The notes under the pieces were generated by a model. That model saw only the letters and a program-made list of their open reading frames with translations, had not been told where the DNA came from and searched no databases. From NCBI GenBank assembly GCA_903941145.1, contig CAJANQ010000537.1, forward strand, positions 1 through 29,237: 29,237 nt of DNA. Reading direction: 5' to 3'. A program made the translations under genes and the position numbers. Below, piece by piece: positions 1,813 to 29,000 of the stretch. This stretch comes from an uncultured Actinomycetes bacterium. Its GTDB lineage: Bacteria; Actinomycetota; Acidimicrobiia; Acidimicrobiales; Microtrichaceae. Every line of letters begins with the position of its first letter. Position 1 is the first letter of the stretch.

Positions 1813-4476
1813 ATGGAGACTCACGGGCTGGTCGACATCCTGATCATCATCCTGGCGGCCAAGCTCGGGGGCGAGCTGGCCGAGCGGTTGCGCGTCCCGT
1901 CGGTCATCGGCGAGATCGTGGCCGGCCTGGTCGTCGGACCCTCCCTCCTCGGCATCGTCGAGCCGAACGAGCTGCTCACGGTGCTCGCAGAGGTCGGCGT
2001 CATCATGCTGCTGCTGCAGGTCGGCCTGGAGATGGACCTGGGCGAGATGCGCCGGGTCGGGGCCTCGGCCATGTCGGTGGCGATCGCCGGGATCGTCGTG
2101 CCCTTCGCGTCCGGGTACGGCGTGGCGCTCGCGCTCGGCCAACCTTCCCGCACCGCGATGTTCATCGGCGCGGCACTGACCGCGACGTCGGTCGGCATCA
2201 CCGCCCGGGCCTTCGGCGACCTGCGGATGCTGGCGTCCAAAGAGTCCCGGATCGTGCTCGGCGCTGCGGTGGCCGACGACGTCCTCGGTCTGGTGATCCT
2301 GACGGTCGTCGTCAGGATCGTGGAGAAGGGGACCTTCAGCCTGTCGGGCGCCCTCACCGTCCTGGGCACGGCGCTCGTGTTCCTGGTCGGGACCACGGCG
2401 GTCAGCCTCAAGGTCGTCCCACCGCTGTTCCGGTGGATCCGCCGCAGCTCGATCGGTGCCGGGACCTTGCTGGTGGCTGCCCTGGTGCTCACCCTGGCGC
2501 TCGCCGAGCTCGCCATCGCGGCCCAGCTGGCACCGATCATCGGGGCATTCGTCGCCGGGCTGGCGCTCGGTACCACGAAGGAGGCGGAGCGGATCGAGCG
2601 CGACCTCACACCACTCAGCCACTTCTTCATCCCCATCTTCTTCGCCGTCGTCGGCATCCAGATCGACGTGGCGGCGCTCCTGCGCCCGGCGGTCCTGGGC
2701 CTGGCCGCCGCGCTGATCGTGGTGGCGTTCGTCGGCAAGCTCGTTGCCGGCCTGTTCGCCGGCCGCGGCGGCGTCGACCGGCTGATGGTGGGCATCGGGA
2801 TGATCCCCCGCGGCGAGGTCGGGCTGATCTTCGCCTCGATCGGCCTGGCCAACGGGGTGCTCGGCAAGGACCTGTACGGGGCGCTGCTGCTGGTCGTGCT
2901 GGTGACCACCGTGGCGACACCGGGCCTGATCCGGGCCCGACGGACCGTCACACTCAAGCGGCAGCGGGCTGCCGTCGGCAACGAGGCGCCCACGGACGGC
3001 TGGCTAGGTCAGGTCGACGGCCTCGTGGTGCTCCACGGTCGGCCACCGGCCGAACAGACGCTCGCCGTGGCGATCGAGGCGGCCACGCTGGCCGGGAGCA
3101 CGCCTCCGTCGGACCATCTCGTCGACTGGCTGAGCGAGGAGGCCGACGGGGACCTGAGCTGGAACGACGACGCCAGGGCCGCCTTCGACGAGCTGCTCCG
3201 GAGCGGCCACCGTCGTTCGTGGCGGCTGCTCGACGCCACCGGGATGCTCGCCGGTGCCCTTCCCGACCTGGCCGACGAGCTCGCCCACCGCCGACGCGAC
3301 ACCTCGCTGCTCGACCCGGCCCACCTGCTGCGTTGGCCGACGGTCGAGGAGCTCGCGGCGCTCGAGCACGGTGACGACCGCGAGGCGACCACCGCCTTCG
3401 GCCTGCTCTCGACCGCCTCGATCCTCCGTCTGGCTGCGCTGGCGGTGGACCTGTCCGGGGAGCACGACGACGTCACGATCACTGCGGGCGACCTGGGCAA
3501 GGACCTCGGTCTGGACGCCGCGGATGTGGCCGAGCTCGTGGCGACCGCCTCCGACGCCGGTCTGCTCCGGGCCACCGCGTCACACCTTGCGGAGGTGCCG
3601 CTCGGTCCGGGTGCCGACCTGGTCGCCCACGTCGGGTCCCTCGAACGTGCCCGACGCCTCTACCTGCTCGACCTGGCACTCGGGGACCTGGCCCCGCTCC
3701 ACAGGGAGACGTTCGACCACGTCACCGGACTGCTCGTCGACGAGCTGGCCCGCCGCGGCGTCAACGACACCGCCGGTGCCGACGAGATCGACCGGCGCCG
3801 CCGGCAGGCGCTCGAGCTCTCGGACGACCCGCGGGTCTCGGCACGGATCGGCAAGGCTCCGAGGTCGCTCGTCGCCTCGCTCGAACCGGCGCAGCTCGTG
3901 ACCGACGTGGCGCTGCTGGCCGAGGGTGTCCCGGCCCCCGGTATGTACCGCGTCGGGGTGCAGCCCGACGGCGACCGCTGGCGGGTGGCCGTCGCAGGTG
4001 GCGACCAGCCCGGGCTGCTGGCGCGTGTTGCCGCTGCGCTCGGTGACGCCGGGCTCCCGGTGGAGCAGGCCACCGTCGCCAGCTTCAGCGACCGGGCCGT
4101 GCTCGACGTCTTCTGGGTCACCGGCACCTCGGCCCCGGACCCCGACCTGCTCGCCGAAGGCATCCTGAACGCGTTCCGGTCGCCGCAGCCCACCGACAAC
4201 GTCCAGGGCATCGGGGTCACCCTCGACAACGACGCCTCCCCGTGGTTCACCGTGTGCACCGTGACCGGGGAGGACCGGGACGGTCTCCTGGCCGACCTGG
4301 CGGCTGCCATCTCGGCGGACGGCGTCGTCGTCCACGGCGCCCGCCTGACGACCAAGGACGGCACGTTCGTGGACCGGTTCGACCTGTCCGACAGGAGGGG
4401 GCGCAAGCTCGACGCTGCCGCCCAGCACAAGGTGGCGGCCCGGCTGGGCGTCACGACCGCCGCCGACGCCTCCTAG
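1813..4476 (+). CDS. CPA2/NapA-type cation:proton antiporter fused to a GlnD-like C-terminal region (degenerate HD plus two ACT domains)
   Basis: 887 aa. About aa 1-380 is a multi-pass hydrophobic domain with ALTATSVGIT, AAVADDVLGL (DD motif), VGKLVAG and GMIPRGEVGLI. The C-terminal part has ACT-like GDQPGLLARVAAAL...VLDVFWV and DNDASPWFTVCTVTGEDRDGLLADLAAAI...FVDRFDL. Confidence 0.85.
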   Translation: METHGLVDILIIILAAKLGGELAERLRVPSVIGEIVAGLVVGPSLLGIVEPNELLTVLAEVGVIMLLLQVGLEMDLGEMRRVGASAMSVAIAGIVVPFASGYGVALALGQPSRTAMFIGAALTATSVGITARAFGDLRMLASKESRIVLGAAVADDVLGLVILTVVVRIVEKGTFSLSGALTVLGTALVFLVGTTAVSLKVVPPLFRWIRRSSIGAGTLLVAALVLTLALAELAIAAQLAPIIGAFVAGLALGTTKEAERIERDLTPLSHFFIPIFFAVVGIQIDVAALLRPAVLGLAAALIVVAFVGKLVAGLFAGRGGVDRLMVGIGMIPRGEVGLIFASIGLANGVLGKDLYGALLLVVLVTTVATPGLIRARRTVTLKRQRAAVGNEAPTDGWLGQVDGLVVLHGRPPAEQTLAVAIEAATLAGSTPPSDHLVDWLSEEADGDLSWNDDARAAFDELLRSGHRRSWRLLDATGMLAGALPDLADELAHRRRDTSLLDPAHLLRWPTVEELAALEHGDDREATTAFGLLSTASILRLAALAVDLSGEHDDVTITAGDLGKDLGLDAADVAELVATASDAGLLRATASHLAEVPLGPGADLVAHVGSLERARRLYLLDLALGDLAPLHRETFDHVTGLLVDELARRGVNDTAGADEIDRRRRQALELSDDPRVSARIGKAPRSLVASLEPAQLVTDVALLAEGVPAPGMYRVGVQPDGDRWRVAVAGGDQPGLLARVAAALGDAGLPVEQATVASFSDRAVLDVFWVTGTSAPDPDLLAEGILNAFRSPQPTDNVQGIGVTLDNDASPWFTVCTVTGEDRDGLLADLAAAISADGVVVHGARLTTKDGTFVDRFDLSDRRGRKLDAAAQHKVAARLGVTTAADAS

Positions 4477-4482
4477 TTGCGG

Positions 4483-4875
4483 TCAGCTGCGCTCGGCGAC
4501 CACGACGGCGCTCGCCATCGCGTCGGTGTGGCTGAGCGAGATGTGCCAGTGCGACACCCCTAGCTCCTCGGCGCGCAGCTGCGCCCGGCCCGAGACGATC
4601 AGCGTCGGGTGGCCGTCGTCGGCCCGCACGACGCCGATCTCGTCGAACCGGACCGAGGTGAAGCCCACGCCCAGCGCCTTCATCGCGGCCTCCTTGGCCG
4701 CGAACCGCGCGGCGAGGACCGGCACCGGGTCCCGGTGGCGCAACGCGTAGTCGCGCTCAGAGCCGGTGAACAGCCGAGCCGCCAGACCGGGCTGGCGGTC
4801 GAGCGCGGCGCGCAGGCGCTCCACATCGACGAGGTCCGTGCCCACGCCGACGACGCTGGTAGGTGCCAGCGTCAT
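4483..4875 (-). CDS. acpS: Holo-[acyl-carrier-protein] synthase
   Basis: 130 aa with [27 protein letters not shown] and ISLSH motifs. Its start overlaps the glmS stop (ATGA). Confidence 0.95.
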
Positions 4876-7800
4876 GAACGCCAGCGGTCTGCGAGGTCGA
4901 GGATCGGCACGGTGAGCAGGTCGGCCACCGACTGCGACGCCAGCAGGTCGTCGCGGAAGACGTCCTCGGTCTCGGTCACGGCGTCCTTCAGGGCCTGGTA
5001 GCGCCGTCGGTAGCCCTGCAGCACGGCACGGGCCGTGGCGGCCGGGAGGTGCTCCGGCAGGTTCACGTGCAGCAGGACCAGACCGGTGGTCACACCGTCC
5101 TTGGCCTCGGGCACGATCACGACCAGGCGACCGTCGCTGCGGCCAACCGCCACCATGAGCTCCTGCTCACGGGCGACGAGCGCCTTGGTGCCGCGCAGAC
5201 GGGCGTCACGATCGATCCGCGACGACATGCCGGCGGCCACGCCGCCACGGTCGAGCACGACCAGCGTGGCCCGCTCGAGGTCCTCGCCGTGCTCCACCCC
5301 GTACCGGGTGTGGCCGACGACCTCGACCACGGCCGGGTCGAGCTCGCCGAGCGTGCGGAGCGTTGAGTAGGCGAGCCGGTCGCGGGGCGCGCCGGCGGCC
5401 AGCACGGCCGCCACGAACGGCACCTGCAACAGCGACTCGTCGCTGCGGCTGATGCCGACCGTGACCGTCTTGGCCTGGTGCTTGATGGCGTCGACCGGAC
5501 GGGTCAGCTCCTCGATCGCCGCAGTGAGGGCTGCGGTCGTGTCCTCGAGGACCACGCCGGGCGTGCCGACCTTGCCGAACTCGATCTGGTAGGCGTCGAG
5601 CGGGCTGATGCCCACGACGTAGCGGAGCTGACCGGCGAGCCGCACGGCGGTCTGCGCCTCGAGGTGGCCGTTCATCTCGCCCGAGCGCAGTCCGTCGAAG
5701 TAGGTGCCGGCGTGCTCGGTGAGCACGGGACGCAGTTCGGCGAGCAGCCGACCGGGGTCGATCTCGGAGGCGTCTGCCCCGACGCTGGCCGCGGCCTGGT
5801 CCAGGGCGGCACGGGCCTCGCGCAGGGGGCGGGCCAGGGCGTCGATGGCGAGTGCCGCCTCGTAGCCGAACAGGTGCCCGGCCATGGTGGCCAGGATGAA
5901 GGCCAGGCGCGGGTCGGTCGACGGGACCGTGATCACCGACATCGCCGCTGGAAAGGCCCGGTCGCCCTCGGACGCGATGACGACCGGCGCCGCCTTGTGG
6001 GCCCGGAAGATCGCGACCTCCTTGGCCACGTCGTCGGCGGTCGAGCCGACCAGGCCGGCGGCACACACCAGGATGAACGGCTCGGAGGACAGGTCGATGT
6101 GCTTCTTGTCCTCGGTGGCGTCACAGGCGATCGACTTGTAGCAGAGCTCGCTGAGCTTGATCCGCAGCTCGCGGGCCGTGATCTGGTTCACGCCGTTGCC
6201 CACGATCGCCCAGTAGCGGCGCGAGGGGCACAGGGTCCGGGCGGCGTCGGCCACGGCGTCGCGGGTGAGGAGCGTCTCCTCCATCCGGGACGGGAGGTCG
6301 CGCAGCGCCCGCAGAAGCTCCTGCTGGGAGGCGTCCGCGCTCGAGCGGCCGCGGGGCACCTCGTCGGCCACGGCCTGGGCCAGCAGCAGGCCGGCCGCCA
6401 CCTGGGCGTAGAAGGCCTTGGTCGACGCGACGCTCATCTCCACGTCGCGGCCGTCGGACGTGTAGAGCACACCGTCGGCCTTGTCGGTCAGGTCGCTGTT
6501 GCGGCGGTTGACGATGGCCACGCAGAGCGCCCCACGGCCGCGCACTAGGTCGACGGTCCGGTTGGTGTCGGTGGTCGTACCGGACTGGCTGATGGCGATG
6601 ATGAGCGTGTCCGACATGTCGGCACGCAGGCGGAAGCCCGAGAGTTCGGTGGCGGGGAGCGCCTCGACCCGGACGTCGGTCTCGGCAAGGAGCTCGGACA
6701 GGTGGTGGGCCAGGCTCTGGCCGGCAATGGCCGCGGTGCCCTGGCCGATGACCTGCACCCGGTCGATCCGGCCGTCGCGCAGGCGCTCGCGCACCGACTG
6801 CGGCAGCGTGCTGTCCGGCAGCTCGACGTGCATCGTGCCGTCGGACTCGAGCAGCTTGCCGCGGAGCGTCTTGCGGAACGACCCCGGAGAGTCCGTGATC
6901 TCTTTGAGCAGGTAGTGCGGGTAGTCGCCACGGTCGATGTCGCGCGTGGTGATCTGGGCGACGTCGAGGTCGCCACCGGTCACGGGCAGCTTGGTGCCGT
7001 CGTAGGACCAGCGGCCGATGCCCTCGACCGAGCCGGCCTTCGTGGTGTCGAGCACCACGATCTGGCCGCGGCTACCGGTGGGGTTGTCGGGATCGGACGG
7101 GGTCTCGCCGTCCATCCGCAGGAAGTCGGCGGTCTCCTCGACCACCCCGTAGGGCTCCGAGGCGATGATGAACGCGTCCTCGGCCACGCCCACGTAGAGC
7201 GCCTGGCCGCTGCCGCGCAGGGCCAGCATGAGCTGCTCCGGGTCCGCGGCGCTCGCTGCAGCGATGGCCACCGAGCCCTCGAGGCGGACCACGGTCTCGC
7301 GGAACGCCTCGTGCACCGGCAGGCCCTCGGCGAGCTGCCGGGACAGCAGGGTCGGGATGACCTTGGCGTCGGTGGTGATCTCGGTGGCGATCTTGAGCCC
7401 GTCCGACGCGATCAGGTCGGCGTAGTTGTCGACGTCGCCGTTGAGCACCGCGGTAGCGAGCGGCACGCCCGAGCCGTCGAGCTCCTCGGAGGACTGCGGG
7501 TGGGCGTTGGGCTCGGAGATGATGCCGATCGACGCCCAGCGGGTGTGGCCCAGGACCAGACCCTCGACGTCGTCGGAACGGAGCGCCAGGTGCAGGAGCT
7601 CGTCGTCGGCCATCGCGGCGCGCAGCGCGGCGGTGTTGTCGCCGAGCTCGCCGATCTCGGCAGAGGTCTTGTAGACGAGCAGCAGCACGCCGTCGACCAG
7701 CCGGACCGAGCCAGAGGTGAACGAGCGGTGGTTCCGCTCGGCGAGCGCCCGGCGCAGGATCGGGTCGTCGGCAGAGATCCCATGACCGGTGAGCTGGACC

Positions 7801-8324
7801 TCGATGCCGGCGGAGTCGCGTCCACGGACCTCGAGCCGGTCGACCGCCGAGAGCGCCTGGTGGAGGCTGAAGAGCACGGCGAGGCCAGAGGGGCCTGCTC
7901 CGGACGGGGTCATCGCCGCGACCTCGTTGGCGGCACGGACGCGGTCGCGGCCGATGGCCCAGACGGCGTCCTTCACACGGATGAGCGAGGCGTTGACGGC
8001 CTCGAGGTCCGGGCCGCTGAGCCCGGAGTCGCCGGCGTCCAGGGCGGCCTCGACCTGCTCCGCGGTGGTCGCCACCTCGGCGACCTGCGCGGCGACGCGG
8101 CCGACCGCAGCAGGGTCCGCAGTGAGCGTGAGGATGCCAGGGATGCCCCGGAGGTCGCCGTCGACGCCCTCGAGCAGGTCGGCGGCAGCGGCCAGCTGCT
8201 CGGCCCAGGCCGACGCGACGTCGGCGAGCAGCCCGTCGGCGACCACGAGCCGCGACAGGACCTCGTCGACGTGGACCGGCTCACGCGTCGTCCGACGACG
8301 CACTACGGCGATGATGCCGCACAT
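4872..8324 (-). CDS. glmS: Atypically large glutamine--fructose-6-phosphate transaminase (GlmS-like, 1150 aa)
   Basis: Start trimmed to ATG 8324 giving MCGII (Ntn Cys1). Also [55 protein letters not shown] and [10 protein letters not shown]. Sits directly downstream of glmM. Confidence 0.88.
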
Positions 8325-8490
8325 AGAACTCACCCTCTGTTGTTGGGAAACGGCCCTCAGGCCGTGGCTGCATCTGCCGGGACCCTCACCGCCCCCGGGA
8401 TGCAAAAAGCCTACCGGGGAGGTTCCAGAACCCGACCGGCTGCCACAGGGTCCACCGGTGGGTGGATCTCCCTGCTCCTGATCATGTGGC
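8325..8490 (-). ncRNA. Candidate structured cis-regulatory leader of glmS (four hairpins)
   Basis: Minus-strand stems: CAGGG-AGA-TCCACC/GGTGGA-CCCTG (8446-8474); GCCGG..GGTT/AACC..CCGGT (8413-8440) followed by AGGCTTTTT; TGCATC-CCGGG/CCCGG-CA-GATGCA (8369-8404); ACGGCC/GGCCGT (8350-8365). Found by manual pairing only. Confidence 0.45.
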
Positions 8491-9822
8491 TCAGGAGGCT
8501 GCGAGGGCCTCGACGGCCGCTGCGAGCCGTTCGGCGACCTGGGCCGCCTGGTCGTCGGTGGCCGCCTCGGCCATGACGCGCACGACGGGCTCGGTGCCCG
8601 ACGGACGCAGCAGCACCCGGCCGGAGTCGCCCAGTTCGGCCGACACTGCGGCGATCTCGGCAGCGAGTCGCTCGGCGACGTCGGGCATCGGCGTACCGAC
8701 CCGCACGTTGACGAGCACCTGCGGAAGGCGGGTCATGGCGCCGGCCGCGAGCTCGGCGAGCGGCCGGCCCGACCGGAGCAGCAGGTCCGACAGCACGACG
8801 GCGCTCAGGAGCCCGTCGCCGGTCGTGGCCAGGTCGCCGAAGATGATGTGGCCCGACTGCTCACCGCCCAGCGAGAACCCGCCCGCGGTGATGGCCTCGA
8901 GCACGTACCGGTCGCCCACGGCCGTGTCGACCACGGTGATCCCCTCGGCCGCCATGGCCTGGCGGAACCCGAGGTTGGTCATGACCGTGACGACGACCGT
9001 GTCGTGGGCCAGGCGGCCACGGCTGCGCAGGTCGAGCGCGCACAGGGCGATGATCTGGTCGCCGTCGACGACGGTGCCGGTGTGGTCCACCGCCACCAGC
9101 CGGTCGGCGTCGCCGTCGAACGCGATGCCCAGGTCGGCGCCGTGCGCCACCACCGCCGCAGCAAGCGGCTCGGGGTGCGTCGAGCCGCAGCCCTCGTTGA
9201 TGTTGCGGCCGTCAGGGTGGTCCGACAGGACCGTGACCTCGGCGCCGAGCGCACGCAGCACCTCGGGTCCGACCACGGAGTTCGAGCCGTTGGCGCAGTC
9301 GACGACCATCTTGAGGCCCTCGAGGCGACGGCCCTCCGTCGACGCCACGACGTGCGCCGCGTACTCGTCGAGGGCGGTGTGGTCGGCGTGGACGCCGCCG
9401 ACCGAGGACGGGCCCGGGTGCAGACCCGGCGAGAGCAGCTCCTCGATCTGCGCCTCCACCGCCGACTGCTCGGCGTCCGACAACTTGCGACCGCCAGGGC
9501 CGAACAGCTTGATGCCGTTGTCGGCGAAGGGGTTGTGCGATGCCGAGATCATGACGCCCGGCACTCCGCGTGCGGACGACGCCGCAGCCACGGCAGGGGT
9601 CGGGACGACCTCGAGCAGCACGGCCTCGGCACCCTCGGCGGTCACGCCGGCCGCGGTGGCGGCGGCGAGCATCTGGCCGGACTCACGGGTGTCGCGGCCG
9701 ATGACGACCTGCTGGGCCGGAAACACGCGGACCGTAGCACGGCCGATGGCGACCGCCACCTCGGCGGTGAGCGCCTCGTTGGCCGGACCACGCACACCGT
9801 CGGTGCCGAAACGGACGGACAT
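8491..9822 (-). CDS. glmM: Phosphoglucosamine mutase
   Basis: 443 aa with FGTDGVRG, ISASHNP (phosphoserine), FDGDADR (metal loop), GGEQSGH and LLRPSGTEP. Confidence 0.97.
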   Translation of the reverse strand: MSVRFGTDGVRGPANEALTAEVAVAIGRATVRVFPAQQVVIGRDTRESGQMLAAATAAGVTAEGAEAVLLEVVPTPAVAAASSARGVPGVMISASHNPFADNGIKLFGPGGRKLSDAEQSAVEAQIEELLSPGLHPGPSSVGGVHADHTALDEYAAHVVASTEGRRLEGLKMVVDCANGSNSVVGPEVLRALGAEVTVLSDHPDGRNINEGCGSTHPEPLAAAVVAHGADLGIAFDGDADRLVAVDHTGTVVDGDQIIALCALDLRSRGRLAHDTVVVTVMTNLGFRQAMAAEGITVVDTAVGDRYVLEAITAGGFSLGGEQSGHIIFGDLATTGDGLLSAVVLSDLLLRSGRPLAELAAGAMTRLPQVLVNVRVGTPMPDVAERLAAEIAAVSAELGDSGRVLLRPSGTEPVVRVMAEAATDDQAAQVAERLAAAVEALAAS

Positions 9823-27252: not shown

Positions 27253-28965
27253 TCAGCGTCGGAACCGGGCCCGGAGCTCCCGCTTGACCACGGGGAGGGA
27301 GAGCCGACGGACGTTGCCGTCGACCAGCGTCACCCCGCCCACGGCAGAGATGGTGTGGAGGCCGTCGGGGAAGGGGCCGTCAGGGTCGGGCGAGATGACC
27401 GCCACCTCGGTCTGTGCGTACCCGTCGGGGTCGAGCCGGTCGACGCGGAAGATCCCGACCGCCGAGCCGTACCGGGGCGAGCAGCGCTGCACCGGCCGGT
27501 ACAGCACGCCCTCGTGCACGAACGGGGTGCCGGCACCCCGTGCACCGTTGACGTCGACCACGAGCGGGTCGCACGCGTGCGGGTGCCACGGCCCCTCGAA
27601 CCGTTCGGCGTACCAGGCGCGCAACGAGGTGTTGGAGCCGCGGTCACGGTCGGTGCCGAACAGCCACCACCGGCCGTCCCAGCGGACGAGGGTGGGGTCG
27701 AGCACCCCGAGGCCCGCGACCAGCACGAGCGTGTCGCCCGGCCGGTCAGGGCGTCCGAGCTGCAGGGACGTGGGGTCGAACCGGTAGGCCCGGACCTCTC
27801 CCGAGCCGGCGTTCTCGGGCAGGCACCAGAGACCGTCGGCCTCCCCCTCCCCCGCCACCTCGACGACGGCCGGGTAGGACGCGTGGTGCTCGAACCGGAC
27901 GACCTCGGTCGGGGCCGACACCGGTGCGGCGCCCGACCCCGCAGGTGCCGACCACCTGATGGCCGAGACCACGCCGTGGTTCCCGGCGTGGTCGTAGTCC
28001 TCGACCAGCATCAGCAGGTCGTCGCCGACCATGACCCCGGCGGGATCGGCGACGTACCGCTCCTTCTCTGGCAGCCGGGGCAGCCAGCGCACTGACGACA
28101 CGTCGGGGTCGTCGAGCAACGAGGCGATGGGACGGTCCAAGACGCCGACGTTCCAGCGGTCGCCGCGGAAGATCCCGTCGGCCTGGCGGCCGACGTTGGC
28201 GGCGCCCATGCGCACGAGCGCCTTGGCCAGGGCCACCCAGCCCGGCGGCCGGTAGAGCGGCGCCGTCGAGGTGCTCGGCGCGACCTCGACGACCTGTGGC
28301 CCGTCGGCCAGCACGCGACGAGCGACCTGGGCCGGGAGTCCGGCCGCACCCAGGTAGGACTGGTCTCGGTTGCGGCGGTAGCTCTGCGGGACGGTGGCGA
28401 ACGCGGCGCGGGCCAGCGGGGCGCCACCGTCGAGCCGGTCCGTGAGACGCTGCAGCAGGACGCCGCTCACGGGGTCGCCGTGGGCGAGCTCCCAGAAGCA
28501 CGGCGGTCCGCCGCGGACGACACGCTCGTCGTCGTGGTGGAAGGACCAGATGCCGAGCGGGGCGACGTCGAGCACCGCGCCGCGGACCATGCCGAACCCG
28601 AGACGCAGCAGCATGTCGGGCCGCTGCGCCGCGACGTCGCCGAGGGCGTCGTCGGGGAACTCCTGCCAGTGGCCCTCGGCGCGGACGACGACGTCCACCT
28701 GGGGCACGCCGGCGAACCGGTCGGAGCAGTCGACGGTGCGCAGGGCGACCGAACGGCGGGCGGCAGCACGGTTGAAGAGCGTCCAGGCCAGCCGGCCCTG
28801 GGACCAGAGCTCGCCGGCCGACGGGCGGGGCGCGGCCGGGGCGGCGTCACGGACCACCACGACGAGCCGGGCACCCTCGACGGCGAGGAGCGCGTCGACG
28901 ACCTCGGCCTGCCACCGGGGCAGCGAGGTCCCGGACACCATGACGCCCCAACGCAGTTCGTCCAC
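27253..28965 (-). CDS. Formyltransferase-like N-domain plus beta-propeller protein (resembles bacterial glucosamine inositolphosphorylceramide transferase N-terminal family / GH43-like fold)
   Basis: 570 aa. N-half: PDMLLRLGFG, LGIWSFHH, RGGPPCFWE, SGVLLQRL and LDGG. C-half from about aa 270: WNVG, YVADP, HASYP, DPTLV..GRWWLFGT, GPWHPH, ARGAG, YRPVQRCSPRYG and GLHT. Family assignment is from remembered motifs. Confidence 0.7.
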   Translation of the reverse strand: MDELRWGVMVSGTSLPRWQAEVVDALLAVEGARLVVVVRDAAPAAPRPSAGELWSQGRLAWTLFNRAAARRSVALRTVDCSDRFAGVPQVDVVVRAEGHWQEFPDDALGDVAAQRPDMLLRLGFGMVRGAVLDVAPLGIWSFHHDDERVVRGGPPCFWELAHGDPVSGVLLQRLTDRLDGGAPLARAAFATVPQSYRRNRDQSYLGAAGLPAQVARRVLADGPQVVEVAPSTSTAPLYRPPGWVALAKALVRMGAANVGRQADGIFRGDRWNVGVLDRPIASLLDDPDVSSVRWLPRLPEKERYVADPAGVMVGDDLLMLVEDYDHAGNHGVVSAIRWSAPAGSGAAPVSAPTEVVRFEHHASYPAVVEVAGEGEADGLWCLPENAGSGEVRAYRFDPTSLQLGRPDRPGDTLVLVAGLGVLDPTLVRWDGRWWLFGTDRDRGSNTSLRAWYAERFEGPWHPHACDPLVVDVNGARGAGTPFVHEGVLYRPVQRCSPRYGSAVGIFRVDRLDPDGYAQTEVAVISPDPDGPFPDGLHTISAVGGVTLVDGNVRRLSLPVVKRELRARFRR

Positions 28966-28971
28966 CGCAAC

Positions 28972-29000
28972 AACCTACGGGCGGCGGTGCGGGTTGCCAC
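28972..29000 (-). promoter_or_regulatory. Putative leaderless promoter of the inserted gene
   Basis: GTGGCA-17 nt-TAGGTT-6 nt-GTG start at 28965, with no SD visible. Confidence 0.5.

Follow-up and report, generated by a model that had tools for sequence, protein, structure and literature searches.

Background

Glucosamine-6-phosphate synthase (GlmS), the first enzyme of cell-wall amino-sugar synthesis, is essential, is a target of antibiotics, and serves as the textbook case of the channelling of ammonia from one domain to another; in the known enzymes the catalytic C-terminal tail (C-tail) is a free C-terminus which closes as a lid over the sugar site. In the eukaryotic enzyme, GFAT, which is feedback-regulated at the protein level by UDP-N-acetylglucosamine (UDP-GlcNAc), this plan is extended by a short loop inserted within the glutaminase domain, while the tail still lies at the C-terminus. 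The present work concerns a gene, referred to here as long glmS, in a stretch of 29,237 nucleotides ("the window"; contig CAJANQ010000537.1 of assembly GCA_903941145.1) from an uncultured member of the Microtrichaceae (order Acidimicrobiales, class Acidimicrobiia, phylum Actinomycetota). It is highly probable that the product of this gene is the housekeeping glutamine:fructose-6-phosphate amidotransferase (GlmS, EC 2.6.1.16) of its organism, and that it represents a distinct long-form subfamily; its additions may act as a regulatory device.

A preliminary interpretation of the DNA from its letters alone (the sequence-only reading) had described the product as a giant GlmS with intact catalytic residues and three insertions, and had stated that no characterisation of such a protein was known to it; literature searches have likewise found no paper on a long-form GlmS.

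Results

Catalytic residues

The open reading frame at window positions 4875-8324 on the minus strand translates to a protein of 1150 residues which starts with MCGII. Pfam models identify in it one class-II glutaminase domain (GATase_6) together with SIS, and the NCBIfam GlmS models are its best matches, though with scores well below their cut-offs. Individual residues were mapped onto E. coli GlmS by means of a phmmer alignment to 2j6h and 1jxa, with Met counted as residue 1, and conservation was evaluated using two alignments, one of which (A1) combines the long form with two 611-residue GlmS proteins of the same order, and the other of which (A2) contains 73 full-length relatives at 30-75% identity.

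In this mapping Arg26 of the E. coli enzyme corresponds to R167, Arg73 and Trp74 to R262 and W263, His86 to H275, Asn98 and Gly99 to N295 and G296, and Asp123 to D319; the SQSG motif is found at 579-582, Lys485 and Glu488 correspond to K723 and E726, His504 to H742, with the spacing of 19 residues between Lys485 and His504 exactly kept, and Lys603 to K952. The mapped catalytic residues are invariant or nearly so across the 73 relatives of A2, Cys2 is nearly invariant, leaving an N-terminal Cys exposed once Met is removed, and the ligands of fructose 6-phosphate (Fru6P) in SQSGTT (579-584) and STK (634-636) are invariant in the long-form family. The mapping and A2 therefore bear out the description of a giant GlmS of 1150 residues in which all the listed catalytic residues are present, including the assignment of the Arg26 equivalent to residue 167 and the register of His504. 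The three substitutions near ligand sites to which the same reading drew attention are also real: ATHG has become ASIG, in which S265 is invariant and position 266 variable; CGTS has become QGTA (528-531), in which A531 never varies and Q528 and T530 hardly do; and KHG has become KHI, in which I743 (G505I in E. coli numbering) is nearly invariant. The long-form family has two further fixed changes, an arginine in place of tyrosine (Y28R, at R169) and a GRD insertion near the sugar site. Judged from its sequence and predicted fold, the protein contains all the catalytic residues of GlmS and is a complete GlmS catalytic machine.

Architecture and predicted structure

The long form contains 539 residues more than the 611-residue GlmS of the same order in A1. 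The coding sequence and the segments of the protein, in order from the N-terminus, are as follows.

4872..8324, minus strand: long-form glmS coding sequence, 1150 codons and a TGA stop at 4872-4874
8298..8324, minus strand: residues 1-9, Met1-Cys2 and strand 1 of the N-terminal nucleophile (Ntn) glutaminase domain, from the translation, A1 and the AlphaFold model
7881..8297, minus strand: residues ~10-148 (~135-140 residues), insert 1, a six-helix module, seen as a gap in the canonical rows of A1
6945..7880, minus strand: residues 149-460, glutaminase core, holding R167, D170, R262/W263, H275, N295/G296 and D319
5838..6944, minus strand: residues 461-829, isomerase half (linker, SIS1 and SIS2), with QGTA 528-531, SQSGTT 579-584, STK 634-636, K723, E726 and H742
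5505..5837, minus strand: residues 830-940 (~110 residues), insert before the C-tail, a five-helix module, seen as a gap in the canonical rows of A1
5445..5504, minus strand: residues 941-960, internal C-tail with K952, the equivalent of the Schiff-base lysine; the best-conserved segment
4875..5444, minus strand: residues 961-1150 (190 residues), C-terminal extension, with three short helices, an alpha-beta-beta-alpha-beta-beta-beta core (986-1088) and five helices

The helices of insert 1 span residues 19-34, 40-58, 60-68, 71-96, 104-138 and 145-164, with predicted local distance difference test (pLDDT) scores of 83-97, and those of the module at 830-940 span residues 832-847, 857-881, 890-903, 909-916 and 922-940. 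Insert 2 comprises about 45 extra residues within 178-252, before GHTRW and inside the glutaminase core. The three insertions of the sequence-only reading (~135-140, ~45 and ~110 residues) are therefore present as described, but the list was incomplete, because A1 reveals further small inserts at 416-440 and 553-561 and the protein carries, besides, the extension of 190 residues at 961-1150, which that reading had entered as a finding of its own. The motif AKTVTV of the tail occupies positions 951-956 and is followed by 194 further residues, so that the tail is not a free C-terminus as it is in canonical GlmS of about 600-700 residues.

The AlphaFold2 model computed on A2 has a mean pLDDT of 91.8 and a predicted template modelling score (pTM) of 0.84 over the full length; residues 953-957, in the tail, form the sole segment with pLDDT below 50. 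The glutaminase core of the model superimposes on the E. coli glutaminase domain (1xff_A) with Z 31.6 and a root-mean-square deviation (rmsd) of 1.6 over 235 aligned residues, and the isomerase half superimposes on 2poc_A with Z 41.8 and an rmsd of 2.0 over 339. For the whole chain, superposition on E. coli GlmS (4amv_A) gives Z 43.1 and pairs 600 of its 608 residues with positions between 2 and 957 of the model, and superposition on human GFAT1 (6r4e) gives Z 42.9, with 613 residues aligned. It follows from these two superpositions that the modelled protein is a complete GlmS core onto which the additions have been grafted.

Conservation in A2 is distributed unevenly along the chain. The highest in the protein is that of the C-tail, at 84% mean pairwise identity over residues 941-960, the catalytic domains come next, with 41-53%, and then the added modules, with 19-33%; insert 1 is present in all the relatives aligned, at 19% pairwise identity. 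The added modules are never missing: the inserts occur in 73 of 73 full-length relatives, with gaps of at most 8%, which is the reverse of what would be found if they were artefacts absent from homologues, the outcome that the sequence-only reading had named as contrary to its interpretation. A Pfam scan of residues 826-1150 in the 73 members returned no consistent family at E <=1, and a complex prediction for insert 1 (12-166) against residues 826-1150 gave a score of 0.00, which is uninformative either way.

The housekeeping role

The gene order in the window is rpoA-rplQ-truA-rplM-rpsI-glmM-[long glmS]-acpS. In genomes of the same order that carry canonical glmS, this gene is located directly after glmM, in a slot identical to that of the long form. 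The source genome is a metagenome-assembled genome (MAG) of 601 contigs, 90.6% complete, which carries glmM and glmU; no canonical glmS, SIS-only deaminase or nagB was found in the contigs of this 90.6% complete assembly.

In a sample of 151 class genomes with a completeness of 90% or more, the two forms never occur together: the long form alone is present in 77 and the canonical form alone in 71, 3 have neither and 0 have both; seven further match rows in this tally consist of one long form and six in five genomes without the C-terminal half. Canonical glmS is found in none of 24 genomes of the same family, and the long form is found in all of these except two incomplete MAGs. The long form is likewise the only form in the closed genomes G008 and G030, in the closed chromosomes TE-7, KE-4 and OZ240616.1, and in strain IMCC26207. 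In the closed genomes which have it as their sole GlmS homologue glmM is retained, and a search of five genomes with the long form only turned up no nagB above the cut-off. On this genomic evidence the long form would be the supplier of glucosamine 6-phosphate (GlcN6P) in these organisms, and the gene most likely encodes the organism's only glucosamine-6-phosphate synthase. A housekeeping GlmS at the canonical locus was what the sequence-only reading had proposed, and the arrangement rplM-rpsI-glmM-[gene]-acpS, in a slot common with canonical glmS, agrees with it, as does the finding of no other glmS in the source genome or in closed relatives; a canonical glmS elsewhere in the genome, which that reading had named as evidence against itself, was not found in the source genome.

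Distribution and phylogeny of the long form

Homologues number more than 7,700 in a word-index search, where the 120 best span 1088-1220 residues, and an exhaustive search yields 997 clusters at 50% identity with E <=1e-30. The C-terminal half specific to the long form is encoded by at least 597 species genomes in a scan of one genome per species, isolates and closed chromosomes included. The carriers go by names such as Microthrixaceae, Iamiaceae and Acidimicrobiales, and both Aquihabitans sp. G128 and strain IMCC26207 are among them; members derived from MAGs are labelled Planctomycetota, Candidatus (Ca.) Xenobia, Ca. Schekmanbacteria and Thermoanaerobaculia, and there are Acidobacteriota members too. 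Of 301 genomes of the phylum, 27 encode the C-terminal half, 11 of them outside the class, and in this set it always lies within frames of ~1100-1400 residues, save for three pieces of 73-591 residues on fragmented assemblies. No intermediate forms between canonical and long GlmS were seen. Four genomes (G188, G204, G232 and G270) enter the genome counts only; neither the tree nor the alignments contain their sequences.

A separate family of the phylum (f61) shows canonical glmS matches (model positions 1-607) inside open frames of 1061-1095 residues, at loci G194:C6:207356-209185, G236:C1:699315-701144 and G250:C1:1349399-1351255. These long open frames are probably due to stop-free, high-GC sequence upstream of glmS.

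The relationship between the forms was evaluated in an unrooted maximum-likelihood tree of 40 long and 25 canonical Actinomycetota sequences, constructed from the 605 columns which they share once the inserts are taken out. A single branch, with a Shimodaira-Hasegawa-like approximate likelihood ratio (SH-aLRT) support of 100 and a length of 3.05 + 1.68, sets all of the long forms apart, and the canonical Acidimicrobiia sequences group with the other canonical ones. The actinobacterial long forms constitute one well-supported clade of 23, outside of which lie the members named for other phyla. Being unrooted and built without canonical sequences from other phyla, the tree is compatible with an origin in place or by transfer.

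The C-terminal end domain

When residues 961-1150 are modelled alone, the resulting end domain has a pLDDT of 95.2. An unbiased structural search with this domain (957-1090) returned GAF, PAS or Cache ligand-binding domains as all 50 of its top 50 neighbours, with Z 5.2-6.8. The best Foldseek E-value, 1.1e-3, is to the GAF domain of PtsP, and when the Foldseek list is re-aligned its top entry is residues 174-358 of 7jsr_A, which belong to the N-terminal regulatory segment of the mycobacterial large glutamate dehydrogenase (L-GDH) L-GDH180, with Z 8.8 over 157 of 194 residues and an rmsd of 4.5. Comparison of the end-domain profile with PDB sequences gave no match at E <=10, and hhalign of the same profile against the N-terminal segment of 12 actinobacterial L-GDHs gave a probability of 11.7% in a register that differs from that of the structural match; the match to L-GDH180 is accordingly treated as a resemblance, not as homology. 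The source genome also encodes, at G000:C362:5409-6869 (L140, L152), a large glutamate dehydrogenase of the L-GDH type, the family to which this best structural match belongs. No stand-alone end domain was found among proteins of 100-363 residues, where the best 120 of 172 matches are all fragments of long GlmS; two such fragments on long contigs were checked and are split or frameshifted genes.

PAS and GAF domains bind their ligands at the connection between beta2 and beta3. In A2 and the model, conserved polar residues S1035, R1036, K1047, D1064 and H1086 are located in or around this connection of the end domain, and together with E1118 they make up its set of polar residues that are near-invariant across phyla. 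The cluster of the first five hints at a candidate ligand-binding site. The term "sensor-like" is applied to the end domain as a description of its predicted shape only.

The gene and its surroundings

The features that adjoin the coding sequence of long glmS are given below.

8331..8337, minus strand: ribosome-binding site GAGGGTG, read from the sequence, 6 nt before the ATG that places Cys at position 2
8491..9822, minus strand: glmM (phosphoglucosamine mutase, which takes the next step of the pathway), immediately upstream of long glmS, with four of four PGM_PMM domains
4483..4875, minus strand: acpS (holo-acyl carrier protein synthase), whose ATG overlaps the stop of long glmS (ATGA, 4872-4875)

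The overlap at 4872-4875 suggests that long glmS and acpS are translationally coupled. A TTG start at 8405 was considered for long glmS and dropped, since with it the Cys nucleophile would be buried, while the ATG has a ribosome-binding site. The frame of long glmS is uninterrupted, and its GC content at third codon positions (GC3), 0.92, is like that of the adjoining genes. The window gave no match to the glmS ribozyme or to any other family of Rfam, and the 174-nt leader of long glmS folds no better than shuffled sequences (z -1.48).

Between nnr and acpS lies a gene (1813-4476, plus strand) for a protein of 887 residues in which a Na+/H+ exchanger membrane domain (13-370) is joined to C-terminal ACT domains (~731-858). 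In Aquihabitans sp. G128 an exchanger of 471 residues without the ACT part is encoded between glmM and long glmS (L125:6692-8107). Elsewhere in the window, upstream of the S10 ribosomal operon, an open reading frame of 573 residues (27253-28974, minus strand) has as its sole Pfam match GINT1_N (E 4.8e-23), the N-terminal family of glucosamine inositolphosphorylceramide transferase 1, which is an unusual family in a bacterium.

Discussion

Alternative explanations

Several observations weigh against the interpretation of the long form as a self-regulating housekeeping GlmS. The curated family cut-offs are missed, with 233.5 bits against 418.05 for TIGR01135 and 250.3 bits against 381 for NF001484, and about 4.7 changes per site separate the long from the canonical forms in the tree; given the TIGR01135 score and this branch, altered kinetics or specificity are possible. 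Ser303, a phosphate ligand in the E. coli enzyme, is replaced by Ala531 throughout the family, which is the sole change among the mapped sugar-contacting residues. A second glmS could be unassembled in the source MAG, with its 601 contigs and 90.6% completeness. Both forms are present in two genomes, Aquihabitans sp. G128 and G288, and the two are therefore not strictly interchangeable. G288 is a MAG of 6.5 Mb from another class with 5% contamination; Aquihabitans sp. G128 (NZ_CP077604.1) is a complete isolate genome, in which the long form (L125:8023-11571, plus strand) holds the rplM-rpsI-glmM slot and the canonical glmS (L124:6720-8534, plus strand; 705 bits) lies elsewhere, adjoining a family-A DNA polymerase gene and an ANTAR response regulator. 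As regards the sensor fold, Z values of 5-9 are flagged by the search tool as possibly reflecting merely a common arrangement, and the 7jsr segment matched by the end domain was itself modelled ab initio and fitted at 6.27 Å (PMC8175468).

It is exceedingly improbable that the long open reading frame is an artefact of assembly, fusion or gene calling. The source genome is indeed a fragmented MAG and on long-read contigs the gene is broken in two in some database entries, but against this stand the more than 7,700 homologues with the lengths given above for the best 120, the occurrence of the C-terminal half in at least 597 species genomes that include isolates and closed chromosomes, the uninterrupted frame with its GC3 of 0.92, and a fold that is predicted with confidence over the whole length; the long-form gene is real. 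A further explanation is that the protein is a diverged paralogue which acts on another substrate or makes another product (a different ketose phosphate or amino sugar), with GlcN6P coming from elsewhere. The sub-cut-off scores, the very long separating branch, the fixed changes S303A and Y28R, the fixed GRD insertion near the sugar site and the co-existence with canonical glmS in the two genomes just described are all in its favour, as is the fact that outside Actinomycetota, in the one contig examined, the long-form gene does not adjoin glmM. We nevertheless regard it as quite improbable: the long form is the sole GlmS homologue in closed genomes which keep glmM, no nagB over the cut-off turned up in the five genomes with the long form only, the slot is shared with canonical glmS, co-occurrence with the canonical form is zero in 148 genomes of the class, and the remaining sugar- and glutamine-contacting residues are all invariant. 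Similarly, because every mapped sugar-contacting residue except Ser303 (Ala) is kept, a shifted sugar specificity appears the least likely of the options raised by the sequence-only reading; of the roles which it offered for the accessory modules, namely allostery, oligomerisation or partner binding, the weak GAF/PAS-like resemblance of the modelled end domain would speak for sensing.

The main rival accepts that the protein is a GlmS and assigns to the modules a structural rather than a sensory role, so that they produce a different oligomer or stabilize the arrangement of the two domains and exert no ligand-dependent control. The inserts are mostly helical and have 19-27% identity as compared with the 41-53% of the catalytic domains, which fits packing or oligomer surfaces; a pTM of 0.84 implies that the assembly is rigid; eukaryotic GFAT, which has extra elements, is tetrameric; and the resemblance to GAF and PAS domains is weak (Z 5-9, best Foldseek E-value 1.1e-3). 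On the other hand, the near-invariant polar set S1035, R1036, K1047, D1064, H1086 and E1118 exceeds the usual need of a scaffold, and the position of the end domain directly after a mobile lid suits control. We judge a purely structural role to be somewhat unlikely.

Proposed mechanism

For the interpretation of the long form as the housekeeping GlmS, the conserved residues and the predicted fold suggest the following course of events. Met1 would be removed and Cys2 would act as the Ntn nucleophile which hydrolyses glutamine; the ammonia would then pass to the site in the SIS domains, where Fru6P, bound by T530, S579-T584 and S634-K636, would be converted through K952, E726, K723 and H742. In the model the lid formed by the C-tail is tethered on both sides, by the helical module of 110 residues and by the GAF/PAS-like domain of 190 residues, and the helical module of 140 residues appears to be built onto helix 1 of the glutaminase domain. 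Because the lid is held at both ends in this model and one of the modules, with its conserved cluster of polar residues, resembles a sensor in predicted shape, the additions would, on anatomical grounds, be well placed to control the closure of the lid and the coupling of the two active sites.

That the additions constitute a built-in regulatory device is, in our estimation, nearly an even proposition. Such a device would operate through an end domain that binds a metabolite or changes its conformation and, because it holds one end of the lid, sets the ease with which the lid closes, resulting in feedback control at the level of the protein. Its most specific version, in which the end domain senses a metabolite and mechanically gates both the internal C-tail lid and the ammonia channel while the helical modules serve as a transmission frame, is advanced more tentatively, at distinctly less than even chances; the candidate signals would be the hexosamine products GlcN6P or UDP-GlcNAc, or the nitrogen signals glutamine or 2-oxoglutarate. 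If this version is correct, then RNA- or partner-based control of GlmS has been replaced by a built-in allosteric switch in a large set of bacteria, which covers about half of the Acidimicrobiia together with members in Planctomycetota, Acidobacteriota, Ca. Xenobia and others.

Significance

A widespread natural GlmS in which the lid is held at both ends would provide a test of how much lid freedom the mechanism needs, and the long form could reveal a new mode of control of the hexosamine pathway. Cultured carriers exist in Aquihabitans sp. G128 and strain IMCC26207, and in the first of these nature offers a setting in which the role of each form of glmS can be studied. The present annotation of the family is inconsistent, in that NCBI names full-length members "SIS domain-containing protein" and C-terminal fragments "glucosamine-6-phosphate synthase, partial". 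Since the full-length protein bears this label and is missed by the curated GlmS model, metabolic reconstructions of Acidimicrobiia will contain a false gap at the first step of peptidoglycan-precursor synthesis, which touches abundant freshwater, marine, soil and activated-sludge bacteria.

Comparison with known systems

Among the closest described systems is the bacterial GlmS typified by the E. coli enzyme (608 residues; 4amv, 1jxa, 2j6h; TIGR01135), in which a Cys Ntn glutaminase domain, two SIS domains and a lysine-bearing tail follow one another in the same order as in the long form. Identity to the long form is about 25% for the E. coli enzyme over the structural alignment and 33-34% for canonical GlmS of the same order in A1. 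The differences are that canonical GlmS has about 610 residues and a terminal tail, whereas the long form has 1150 residues, an internal tail and added modules at 10-148, 830-940 and 961-1150, and that S303A, Y28R and G505I are fixed in the long-form family. Human GFAT1 (6r4e) is likewise a GlmS enlarged by extra elements, but its alignment with the model, 613 of 663 residues, is confined to positions 2-954 and it has none of the three long-form modules; with inserts at other positions and an internal tail, the long form is not a GFAT of the eukaryotic type. The GAF, PAS and Cache sensors, represented by the GAF domains of PtsP (3trc, 3ci6) and Lcd1 (5w10), resemble the modelled end domain in its alpha-beta-beta-alpha-beta-beta-beta core and flanking helices, at Z 5.2-7.3 but only 7-18% identity, and no Pfam GAF or PAS match is found in the 73 members. 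At the level of overall design there is a parallel in L-GDH180 of M. smegmatis (7jsr; PMC8175468), which is also a giant actinobacterial enzyme of nitrogen metabolism with sensor-type add-ons.

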